DNA of 39,692 bases from an uncultured Candidatus Peribacteria bacterium (GCA_964365905.1 CAYIRQ010000001.1:1-39692); one strand, 5' to 3'. Positions 37,546 through 39,692 are shown, counted from the stretch's first letter. Notes: a model not told the origin generated them from the sequence alone. Translations and numbers: made by a program.

Positions 37546-37981
37546 GCCCGGCTTCACCGTTATCGAAATGATCGTGGTTCTCGCGATCTTCATTCTCTCC
37601 GCGGCCGTGACGCTCCCGTTTCTCGGAACGTTCCAGCAAACCGAGGATCTCGAGACCATCAGTGTGGACGCGCTTCTCGCACTTCGTCGCGCGCAGAGTC
37701 GCACCATGAGCGGGCAGCGGGACAGCAGCTGGGGTGTGCATTTTCAGGTCGGAGGATTCACGCTGTTTGCCGGGGAGAGTTTTGAGAAAAGAGAGGTTGC
37801 ATTCGATGAAGCACATGTGGTTCCGGTGGCGTATTCCTTTACGGGACTGACGACGGTGCGCTTCGTCCGTCCCCATGGCCTTCCGATCGCTGCAGGAACG
37901 CTCTTCATTGCGCATCCCTCCAACGTAGCCGCTCATATCGACGTGAATGCCGCCGGAGCAATTTTCCTCGAAGATGAATGA
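37523..37981 (+). CDS. pseudopilin / minor pilin (prepilin-type N-terminal domain)
   Basis: MSREAFSRPG|FTVIEMIVVLAIFILSAAVTLPF has Gly-1, Phe+1 and Glu+5. It is 152 aa, overlaps pilC by 23 nt and overlaps the next ORF by ATGA. Confidence 0.8.
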   Translation: MSREAFSRPGFTVIEMIVVLAIFILSAAVTLPFLGTFQQTEDLETISVDALLALRRAQSRTMSGQRDSSWGVHFQVGGFTLFAGESFEKREVAFDEAHVVPVAYSFTGLTTVRFVRPHGLPIAAGTLFIAHPSNVAAHIDVNAAGAIFLEDE

Positions 37982-39692
37982 CACAAATTTCTTCCCATCG
38001 CCGTGGGCAAACGCTCGTCGAAGCCATTGTTGCGATGGGCGTTGTCATCGTCTTTGCATCCGCTCTCGGCCGCCTCATTCTCGGCGCGTACGAGGGACGG
38101 AGAGTGGCGAACGAGCGGACCGAAGCGTCCTACCTCGCCTGGGAAGGACTTGAAGCAGCGAGGTCCATTGCAGAGCAGAATTTTCAATCTCTTCAGAACG
38201 GGACCTATGGGCTTACGTCCGATGCCAGCGGCACGCTGCTCACGAGGGAACCTGACACTCATGGAAAATTTCTCCGGGAGATCACGATCGGTCCCGTTTT
38301 ACGCGACGAACATGGTACCATTTCCCAGAGTGGCATGGAGCTCGATAAGAGAACGAAAGCGGTCACCTCTTCCATAACGTGGACTCCGGCACATGGACGT
38401 CCGCAGGCCGTGCGCACCTTCACCTATCTCACCGATTGGTTTCGACCACGCTGGTTGATCGACCTTCTCACTGAGTTTCTTCCTGGTAACAGCCATGCCA
38501 CCGCTCTCACCGAAGAACACAACGGAGAAGTTTCTCTCGAACATGGATCGCTACGGGAGCTCTCCGTCTTTCACGAAGAAACATTGCCCTTTCCAGGGGT
38601 TGTTCGTGACCTGCTCCTCGATCCCATCGCAGATCGTCTGTACGTCGCAACGGCGAATAATGCCGATGGGCAGGAAGTGTTTGTCTATGACACCGCGAAT
38701 CTGAGCGCACGGGAGTTCCCGTTGCTCGGATCGGTAAATCTGGAGGATGGAGCGACGGCGCTTGCCGCAGATGACGAGTATTTGTACGTCGGAACGGAAG
38801 ACGGCGACAGGGAAATTCAGGTGGTGGATCTCGATGACTACACAGTGAAAACAACGTGGGATCTCATGGACAGCGCGACCCCGATTGATTTTGCGTTTGA
38901 TGAAGCGAACCAGCGTCTGTATGTCGTGACAACGAACGAGGCATTCCATGCGCCGGAAGTTGCACGATTTTCATTTTTGAATAATGTCTGGAAGGCGCTT
39001 GGCCGAAAAGCGTCAAAAATATTTCCCCTTGAACGCGCACTCGCTCAAAGCGTTCCCACTTGCCAGGGGCAAACAGCGACGATCTATGTAAATAGCAGCA
39101 ATAAAATTGTGGGGGGTCCGGACGATGGCGACACGTATGCGGGGACACTCGATGGCACGAGCGGTGCGGATGTGATGGTCGGCACAAGTTCCGCGGATAC
39201 CATCGACGGCAAAGGCGGAGCTGATACCATCTGTGGTGAAGGCGGAAACGACACGCTCAAGGGCGGAAACGGAAATGATACGATCGTTGGAGGAGATGGA
39301 AACGACTCAGTCCAGGGGGAAGGAAACGACGACACGCTGACCGGCGATGAAGGAAATGACACCGTGGAAGGAGGGAATGGCGATGACGTCGCGTACGGCG
39401 GAAACGGCGATGATACGGTGAAAGGCGATGGCAATAACGATACGGTATATGGGGACGCCGGAACGGATACTGTGGAGGGAGGCAATGGAGACGATACGGT
39501 CTACGGAGGAAGCGGCAACGATACCGTCAAGGGGAACGGAGGAACGAATACGCTCTATGGAGAAGCGGGGAACGACGCATTCACCGGCGGGAGCGGCGAT
39601 GACACGATATTTGGCGGCAGCGGCAATGACACTTTTGATGGACAGGGCGGGGCCGACATCGAATGCGGAGAAGCGGGCGCCGACACATTGAA
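37978..39692 (+). CDS. large modular pilin-like protein with propeller-like repeats and RTX calcium-binding repeats (3' end beyond window)
   Basis: Frame +1 is open for 571 codons from ATG 37978 to the window edge (hand translated; not in the ORF track). The N-terminus is MTQISSHRRG|QTLVEAIVAMGVVIVFASAL. The middle has …DRLYVATANNADGQEVFVYD… and …EYLYVGTEDGDREIQVVDLDD…. From about 39154 there are consecutive GGxGxDxUx nonapeptides. Confidence 0.8.
   Translation, partial: MTQISSHRRGQTLVEAIVAMGVVIVFASALGRLILGAYEGRRVANERTEASYLAWEGLEAARSIAEQNFQSLQNGTYGLTSDASGTLLTREPDTHGKFLREITIGPVLRDEHGTISQSGMELDKRTKAVTSSITWTPAHGRPQAVRTFTYLTDWFRPRWLIDLLTEFLPGNSHATALTEEHNGEVSLEHGSLRELSVFHEETLPFPGVVRDLLLDPIADRLYVATANNADGQEVFVYDTANLSAREFPLLGSVNLEDGATALAADDEYLYVGTEDGDREIQVVDLDDYTVKTTWDLMDSATPIDFAFDEANQRLYVVTTNEAFHAPEVARFSFLNNVWKALGRKASKIFPLERALAQSVPTCQGQTATIYVNSSNKIVGGPDDGDTYAGTLDGTSGADVMVGTSSADTIDGKGGADTICGEGGNDTLKGGNGNDTIVGGDGNDSVQGEGNDDTLTGDEGNDTVEGGNGDDVAYGGNGDDTVKGDGNNDTVYGDAGTDTVEGGNGDDTVYGGSGNDTVKGNGGTNTLYGEAGNDAFTGGSGDDTIFGGSGNDTFDGQGGADIECGEAGADTL

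Follow-up and report, generated by a model that had tools for sequence, protein, structure and literature searches.

Modular pilins were defined in 2021 by Raynaud et al. (PNAS) in a catalogue of 1,219 proteins with 264 architectures, many of them from the Candidate Phyla Radiation (CPR), and were regarded as likely tip-exposed adhesins (PMC8179133). Dataset S1 of that study comprises 30 proteins with a pilin module and LVIVD repeats (IPR013211) and two with a pilin module and RTX (repeats-in-toxin) repeats (IPR001343), with no combination of LVIVD and RTX (PMC8179133). Here, we analysed a stretch of 39,692 nucleotides (the window) from an uncultured Candidatus Peribacteria bacterium (GCA_964365905.1 CAYIRQ010000001.1:1-39692), which ends within an open-ended gene (37978..39692, + strand; the target) for a pilin-like N-terminus, propeller blades and an RTX array. 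We read its product, with a probability of roughly 0.6, as a tip-located modular minor type IV pilin that carries the RTX array nested in its propeller and would act as an adhesin in this Peribacteria-like CPR bacterium. The initial annotation of the locus knew of no described example of this architecture, but as a class it is represented by the N_methyl-LVIVD and N_methyl-RTX proteins of the 2021 catalogue. Since a pilin carrying RTX repeats has already been catalogued, the target is an unusual variant of a recognised class, not a new kind of system. Beyond that catalogue, a literature search found no paper discussing a pilin-RTX or pilin-LVIVD protein.

The described modular pilins, which include PilB (vWA) and PilC (lectin) of S. 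sanguinis as well as the CPR N_methyl-LVIVD proteins, resemble the target in being encoded with pilus machinery and proposed as tip adhesins. They differ from it in being linear strings of modules, whereas the RTX β-roll of the target would be nested in the propeller. Moreover, the target would escape a survey based on InterPro because both its N_methyl and its LVIVD regions are below threshold. A second close comparison is PilX2 from Nanosynbacter lyticus TM7x (Saccharibacteria), a minor pilin of the Patescibacteria with a C-terminal propeller that is likewise encoded in a pilus locus and proposed as a pilus adhesin (PMC12206443). Its deletion reduced host binding from ~10.6% to 4.6%, a defect similar to that caused by loss of the major pilin or the ATPase (PMC12206443). 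As judged from the published description, the PilX2 propeller is of the seven-blade RCC1 type, with no RTX repeats reported, and the protein lacks a predicted PilD site (PMC12206443), whereas the target family has a clear G-x-x-hydrophobic-x-E motif.

The tip adhesins PilY1/PilC share with the target a propeller head, an association with the minor-pilin priming complex and variable N-terminal modules, and Ca2+-dependent behaviour is documented for them in work cited by PMC8179133. PilY1 itself is not a pilin: it has neither a class III signal nor an α1 helix and docks onto minor pilins, whereas the propeller of the target is covalently attached to the pilin module. The Ca2+ sites of PilY1 are EF-hand-like and not of the RTX type. 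As Pfam also gave no match to the PilY1-type propeller (IPR008707) on the target, PilY1 is a functional analogue only. The RTX exoproteins and adhesins (HlyA, CyaA and LapA/MpIBP-type) have the same tandem GGxGxDxUx repeats and a parallel β-roll that, in the target, is predicted to be Ca2+-loaded; those secreted by type I systems have an uncleaved C-terminal signal, unlike the N-terminal, Sec-dependent class III signal of the target. Finally, GspK and CofB/ComZ are enlarged minor pilins of the tip, and the domain inserted in the pilin fold of GspK provides a precedent for nested insertion (PMC8179133). Their additional domains (an α-domain in GspK; β-repeat, sandwich and solenoid domains in CofB/ComZ) are unrelated to those of the target, in which the insertion lies in the propeller and not in the pilin module.

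Gene extent and assembly support

Translation of the window confirmed the 571-codon open frame of the initial annotation: frame +1 runs without a stop from ATG 37978, the first codon past an in-frame stop, to the last base, 39692, and the start codon and the stop of the pseudopilin gene upstream overlap in an ATGA. An exact-protein look-up retrieved two Logan contigs, L001 and L002, which derive from other sequencing runs and both encode the identical upstream pseudopilin protein. Their DNA is 100% identical to the window across the pilin/RTX junction and as far as base 39692, and L002 continues for 311 bp past the end of the window, which extends the open reading frame (ORF) by 104 codons to at least 675. 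The tail of L002 found no match by exact DNA search in genome contigs and metagenome contigs or by protein search, nor did cluster look-ups with the partial target proteins return any.

An artefactual fusion was considered, in which misassembly, a frameshift or a sequencing error would have merged the pilin gene with a separate RTX gene for a type I secretion system (T1SS) substrate. In its favour, all three assemblies break inside or just past the repeats, L001 terminates in adapter sequence, and two related database proteins, P0005 and P0006, are cut by apparent frameshifts. However, the frame is open from the pilin head into the repeats, the three assemblies (the window, L001 and L002), each from another run, agree at 100% over the junction, and the nine-residue register is unbroken, so that the ORF is real and not an assembly chimera. 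The whole architecture also occurs in a single ORF of 1,442 amino acids (aa) at ~40% identity, on a 697-kb contig (L003) of a metagenome-assembled genome (MAG), where the domain order and the motif VPTC.GQTATIYV are kept. GC content is uniform over the gene, and T1SS genes were not found nearby. The junction identity in three assemblies and the single ORF of L003 effectively refute an artefactual fusion, and the chance that it applies is close to negligible.

Further possibilities on the origin of the gene and the end of the contig were rejected. Horizontal acquisition was ruled out since the GC content of the target is even and uniform with that of the neighbouring genes. At the DNA level, Tandem Repeats Finder (TRF) detected no tandem repeat across the RTX array, on which ground both a recent expansion of the repeats and breakage of the contig by simple repeat collapse were rejected.

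Some observations concern the public sequences themselves. Positions L001:4234-4255, at the contig end, are the Illumina adapter AGATCGGAAGAGCACACGTCTG, whose in-frame translation gives the spurious tail '...AEDRKSTRL', and untrimmed adapter can thus sit at the ends of public Logan contigs. By eye, P0005 (579 aa) tracks the L003 ORF from the N-terminus to '...SGQVTG', after which the sequence looks +1 frameshifted, and P0006 (371 aa) finishes in an out-of-frame-looking stretch at the expected start of the VPTC.GQTATIYV junction. In public protein sets, truncation of such repeat-rich pilin genes seems to be routine.

Pilin module

The target begins with the class III (prepilin) leader MTQISSHRRG (37978..38007, + strand), which ends in Gly -1 and is followed by QTLVEAIVAMGVVIVFASAL; the mature protein would start at QTLVE, with Glu at +5, and a hydrophobic helix comes next. 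This bears out the class III signal that had been annotated, and Glu5 is a feature of filament assembly in pilins. AlphaFold2 (AF2), run with a family alignment of 41 sequences, modelled the pilin module (38008..38442, + strand) as a long α1 helix (aa 11-67) and an antiparallel β-sheet (aa 75-152), with predicted local distance difference test (pLDDT) values of ~88-97 over aa 11-150.

The module is homologous to the N-terminal modules of P0001, which bears the JGI name PilV, and of P0002. Pfam N_methyl (PF07963) scored 16.7 bits on the target, under its cutoff of 21.2 bits, which is passed by the relatives P0022 (26.9 bits) and P0096 (23.4 bits), and TIGR02532 gave no match at E <= 0.01. The protein qualifies as a type IV pilin by motif, fold and context, though not by Pfam cutoff. 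Its subtype (GspH/I/J/K, or FimU/PilV/PilW/PilX) could not be assigned, as sequence searches of the PDB returned only weak matches to propellers and pilin N-termini. In the window assembly, both Logan assemblies and the orthologue, pilin module, blades and RTX repeats are found in one polypeptide, as in a modular pilin.

β-Propeller and protein family

Behind the pilin module lie the first three blades of a β-propeller (38590..38982, + strand; aa ~205-335), with the units DRLYVAT, EYLYVGT and QRLYVVT, which are of the LVIVD type by homology. Each was modelled by AF2 as a four-stranded blade with pLDDT values of 85-96, and every Foldseek match of the N-terminal-half model in the PDB was a β-propeller. 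The three LYV-centred segments that had been noted initially are thus real blades, although they form just the first part of a larger propeller. Pfam LVIVD (PF08309) gave no match at E <= 0.01 on the window protein or its L002 extension, so the assignment rests on homologous family members that do match LVIVD. Of the Pfam families proposed for checking the architecture, then, only the RTX family (see below) was recovered on the target itself, with N_methyl below its cutoff and LVIVD without a match.

Exhaustive HMMER searching with aa 1-390 of the target retrieved 2,088 cluster representatives at E <= 1e-3, including 30 at E <= 1e-30, and most of the best matches were collinear with aa ~4-320 of the target. 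Among the 150 best representatives, many are ~470-700 or ~940-1,000 aa long, and the G-x-x-hydrophobic-x-E motif is present near the N-terminus of 125, with Gln as the most frequent residue at +1 (49/125), so that the G-QTLVE of the target represents the family norm. The Pfam scan of relatives covered the best 57 of these 150 and found LVIVD in 46, Beta_propel in 22, N_methyl in 18 (E <= 1e-3) and Laminin_G_3 in two; HemolysinCabind, the RTX family, was found in P0005 only (1/57). One relative bears the label Patescibacteria prepilin. In a profile of plain family members, positions 2-324 align to aa 1-325 of the target with E = 7e-94. On these alignments, the target is a member of a large family of CPR minor pilins to which an LVIVD β-propeller is fused. 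Word-indexed protein searches recovered few family members (2 and 8 matches, without P0005), and a metagenome scan with the family alignment gave two marginal loci only.

It is very unlikely that the propeller/RTX head is an enzyme delivered by the pilus (lactonase-, lyase- or epimerase-like) instead of an adhesin. Similarity to lactonase and YncE-type propellers is weak: the target gave a weak seven-blade match to YncE and a family profile a weak match to the YncE propeller, which are evidence for the propeller fold as well. Modular pilins with peptidase modules exist (PMC8179133), and RTX R-modules accompany the catalytic domains of AlgE epimerases. However, neither the window protein nor the 1,442-aa orthologue had a Pfam match to a catalytic-domain family, and the literature describes the LVIVD repeat as a cell-surface repeat whose function is unknown (PMC10210494).

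RTX array

The insert that follows the third blade starts with a low-confidence linker and the conserved junction motif AQSVPTCQGQTATIYV (38983..39153, + strand; pLDDT <50). This motif has a counterpart, AQGVPTCNGQTATIYV, in P0005 and L003 and occurs again as PLPTCNGLTATVYV ahead of the second RTX array of L003. The RTX nonapeptide array proper (39154..39692, + strand; aa 393-571), a predicted Ca2+-binding β-roll according to Pfam, repeat register, AF2 and Foldseek, starts at aa 393 (nucleotide 39154) and keeps an unbroken nine-residue register over ~20 repeats in the window. With the L002 extension it reaches ~aa 600 and 23 repeats, which confirms the array and the start at about 39154 that had first been noted for it. 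Of the 23 repeats, all have G1, 18 have G4, 22 have D6 and 20 are hydrophobic at position 8, and HemolysinCabind scored 142.6 bits against a cutoff of 23 bits (E = 3e-42).

When the full 571 residues were submitted to AF2, the RTX half was returned with pLDDT values of ~30 because the family multiple sequence alignment lacks depth there. A single-sequence run on the RTX segment alone gave pLDDT values of 85-93 and one short strand per nine residues, and Foldseek matched this model most closely to the CyaA RTX blocks and the Ca2+-dependent β-helix of MpAFP, and also to the β-rolls of lipase and serralysin (best E = 4.8e-4). The structure prediction that had been suggested for this protein yielded the pilin fold, the first three blades and the RTX β-roll.

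Past the array, L002 encodes the Cys motif NTDICHGETVFNCEDT, a ~35-residue acidic linker and then 'KFYALDLGNPLATAPVIL...', in all at least 75 residues that include a blade-like motif. This last segment aligns to the blade-start motif 'elyvidisnp' with a score of 1.8 bits, which is weak yet above 500/500 shuffles. As judged from this extension, the target appears to have RTX repeats without Ig domains.

In L003, the boundaries follow the pattern P-T-C-x-G-x-T-A-T-[IV]-Y-V ... RTX ... T-D-I-C-x-x-G-E-x-x-x-x-C-[ED]-D, which delimits a Cys-bounded cassette, and the boundary Cys residues may form disulfides at each β-roll base. The array of the target is likewise bounded by conserved motifs with Cys.

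Nested insertion in an orthologue

The L003 contig was found by scanning reference genomes with the three closest sequences; it belongs to a Candidatus Peribacteria MAG, and the orthologue (L003:9998-14326) is complete. Its chain starts with the pilin module, three blades, AQGVPTCNGQTATIYV, an RTX array, TDICREGEVNTGCEDT and Big_5, continues with PLPTCNGLTATVYV, a second RTX array, TDICRNGESYTNCDD and further Big_5 Ig-like domains, and ends with a poly-Ser stretch, further LVIVD-type blades ('KLYVIDISG...', 'YAYILTDNGGAELSIMNL') and the C-terminal domain found family-wide. Over the full chain, Pfam matched Big_5 in four stretches. The orthologues differ in how many RTX repeats they have, with ~10 + 10 in L003 versus 23 in the target.

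A profile of 29 plain family members of ~630 aa was split by the L003 protein into a first part (profile positions 6-323 on aa 4-302; E = 3e-59) and a second part (positions 287-626 on aa 1094-1442; E = 1.5e-57), which defines a ~790-aa insertion at the boundary between blades 3 and 4. At the same point, a Peribacteraceae relative (L004) has the uninterrupted junction '...DRLYVSTKQSASTSEFLILDISAP...'. The alignments place the RTX/Ig material of the orthologue firmly inside its propeller, and in the window protein the RTX array is probably a Cys-bounded cassette nested in the propeller in the same manner. The initial view of the array as a terminal passenger on a pilin anchor is therefore superseded, as blades and the C-terminal domain resume after the insertion in L003. 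A related genome thus retains pilin, blades and RTX repeats in one ORF and not the RTX part as a separate gene.

This arrangement also bears on secretion. The RTX arrays of L003 are internal, 700 to 1,000 residues from the C-terminus, which is formed by a domain common to relatives without RTX repeats; since they lie inside the propeller, they do not constitute a C-terminal passenger of the T1SS type. Judging from the C-terminus of L003 and the at least 75 post-array residues of L002, no T1SS C-terminal signal directly follows the repeats. Genes for an ABC transporter, a membrane fusion protein or TolC were absent from the window ORFs scanned and from the L003 ORFs read or Pfam-scanned around the orthologue. 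By these sequence features, the target fails the defining characteristics of type I-secreted RTX proteins.

Two observations concern the modules themselves. In L003:10990-13280 (aa ~330-1093), the RTX cassette occurs as a tandem pair, with Big_5 Ig-like domains after each copy, and it looks like a duplicating, shufflable module. In a 991-aa family member from a Candidatus Komeilibacteria MAG (L006:9989-12960), a large segment that by eye looks lectin-like separates the pilin module from the LVIVD blades. Different CPR lineages appear to have different modules inserted in this pilin-propeller scaffold.

Operon context

The target is the second minor pilin of a pilB-pilC-pilin operon. Directly upstream is a 152-aa minor pilin, or pseudopilin (37523..37981, + strand; N_methyl, 18.3 bits; weak ComGE, GspH and GspI matches), with 41% identity to the syntenic L003 gene. 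It is preceded by the platform protein PilC/GspF (36490..37545, + strand; Pfam T2SSF, 4e-53; NCBIfam GspF and PilC; 57% identity to L003 PilC) and by the assembly ATPase PilB/GspE with an MshEN N-terminal domain (34765..36483, + strand; T2SSE, 2e-121; MshEN, 9e-12; 55% identity to L003 PilB). In L003, the order is pilin, pilB, pilC, minor pilin, large pilin, two more minor pilins and a pilM-like gene, and the operon is syntenic with the window at protein identities of 41-57%. The operon context that had been annotated was thereby corroborated by Pfam, NCBIfam and synteny; in contrast, the target had been called the last gene of the operon, which the end of the window cannot show and which the two minor pilins and pilM-like gene downstream in L003 contradict.

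Two tandem, paralogous candidate major pilins (33534-34076 and 34084-34716, - strand; N_methyl, 26.4 and 25.4 bits, above cutoff; weak GspG-like matches) are encoded divergently from pilB. They share 50-55% identity with the pilin upstream of pilB in L003, which is a single gene on the pilB strand. As listed, the second of these ORFs has an implausible 44-residue leader before the Gly, and translation probably starts further in, at the Met within 'MAGLRRGFTMIELI'.

The locus is also where the pilin-like N-terminus has to be weighed as a mere membrane or surface anchor, with the head on the cell surface or on a short stub and not at the tip of a long pilus. The protein would then resemble archaeal binding proteins with class III signals or a short pseudopilus as in type II secretion systems (T2SS). 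Consistent with this, the leader is non-canonical in Pfam, PilB and PilC score about equally as GspE and GspF, and PilT was not found in the window. Against it, the gene sits among minor pilins of an operon with major pilins and a PilM-like gene, G-1 and E+5 are kept in the 125 of 150 relatives mentioned above, and the pilin fold was modelled confidently. Moreover, deletion of PilX2 in TM7x lowered the number and length of T4P-2 filaments (PMC12206443). On balance, we consider an anchor-only role unlikely.

Proposed function

An adhesive module displayed on a type IV pilus is, by analogy with the systems above, the most reasonable function for the target. The N-terminal helix would insert the protein into the membrane via Sec, prepilin peptidase would cleave it after Gly10, and the mature protein would join other minor pilins in a priming complex at the pilus tip, a placement suggested by the head being too bulky for the filament shaft. 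The RTX segment would be unfolded in the low-calcium cytoplasm and would become a rigid, Ca2+-loaded β-roll only outside the cell, which would suit a very large passenger that crosses the membrane unfolded, and export would take place without type I secretion. Once folded, the β-roll would project from the propeller as a ~55 Å arm or an extra binding surface, and the propeller/RTX head would be an adhesin with which this probable episymbiont attaches to partner cells or surfaces. Genomes of Peribacteria carry genes for type IV pili, a sortase and S-layer proteins, and Peribacteria have been inferred to be symbionts (PMC4736985).

For T1SS substrates, Ca2+-driven folding of RTX repeats outside the cell is established (PMC3034196, PMC10511787). 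The same folding fits a variant in which the protein is the same tip pilin, with the RTX array serving as a rigid Ca2+-dependent spacer or folding ratchet and the propeller and other inserted domains binding. Each RTX cassette of L003 is followed by Big_5 Ig-like domains, as expected of a stalk of serial modules, and the variable repeat number likewise favours a spacer. The present data are, however, equally compatible with a binding role of the repeats: in CyaA, RTX blocks bind a receptor directly (PMC8214218), and the apparent lack of Ig domains in the target leaves no distal domain evident for a stalk to present. We regard a pure spacer as rather improbable.

More speculative, and doubtful at present, is the RTX cassette as a calcium switch in a split tip propeller, where Ca2+ would fold the roll, close the propeller and make the adhesin competent. 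Without Ca2+, the insert would be disordered and the propeller halves could not close. If this applied, attachment of a CPR episymbiont to its partner cell would be calcium-gated, and it would be a first case in which RTX-driven folding serves a Sec/type IV pilus route and not type I secretion.

Several points weigh against the tip-adhesin interpretation. Tip location, Ca2+ binding and adhesion are properties that we infer, N_methyl and LVIVD are below the Pfam cutoffs on the target protein itself, and the model of the RTX segment derives from a single sequence. The window contains only part of the target ORF, which L002 extends to 675 codons without reaching a stop, and the return of blades after the RTX array in the target organism depends on the 1.8-bit match. 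Neither a prepilin peptidase (PilD) nor the retraction ATPase (PilT) was found in the window. Lastly, from known β-roll geometry, a roll of 23 repeats is ~55 Å long with its ends far apart, and the chain must therefore return via the ~35-residue acidic linker for the propeller to close.

Implications

What appears to be new is an RTX cassette nested inside an LVIVD propeller and conserved across two divergent Peribacteria-like lineages, together with the sign that the blade-3/4 point is a hot spot for module insertion. The widespread CPR pilin-LVIVD scaffold appears to accept RTX, Ig-like and lectin-like modules, and such nested insertions suggest a hot spot that diversifies binding specificity. 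Type IV pili are the leading candidates for the means by which CPR/Patescibacteria recognise and hold their partner cells, and the locus provides a candidate, defined at the sequence level, for the part of a Peribacteria pilus that contacts the host. RTX β-roll repeats would here be used outside type I secretion, behind an N-terminal prepilin signal. The lineage in which this occurs probably lacks an outer membrane. Genes of this kind are systematically interrupted when assembled from short reads and overlooked in surveys of the InterPro type, so that their diversity is underestimated.

Other features of the window

The rest of the window consists of chromosomal housekeeping genes, including those for PGK, TyrRS, transketolase, transaldolase and 6PGD, along with SLH-domain proteins and a DUF3160 protein. 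Two adjacent tRNA-Ser genes with GCT and TGA anticodons (33265-33474, - strand) separate the pilin genes from a 554-aa ORF (31534-33198), which is an unusual fusion of a Memo-like segment (aa 75-230) and a PGA_cap capsule-synthesis domain (aa ~445-525). Upstream of the latter lies the 878-aa DUF3160 protein (28946-31582). A 1,026-aa ORF (17670-20750, - strand) matches only HTH_32, HTH_28 and HTH_29 at its N-terminus, leaves ~900 residues without a family and is overlapped by long ORFs on the opposite strand. No Pfam match at E <= 1e-4 was obtained for the ORFs at 12036-13913, 4984-6276 and 16465-17649 (- strand), which encode 625, 430 and 394 aa, respectively.

Genes for a XerC/D-like tyrosine recombinase (7032-7961) and for a Y1 transposase of the IS200 type (9798-10271, - strand) lie within ~3 kb of each other with unannotated ORFs between them, and the segment 7032-10271 may be a small mobile region. 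Candidate surface genes at 20773-22119, 25061-25924 (- strand) and 25620-27212 encode two SLH-domain proteins, one of them with an additional cupredoxin-like domain, and a Gmad2 Ig-like protein; together, the SLH and Gmad2 genes fit an S-layer-bearing envelope of the monoderm type.

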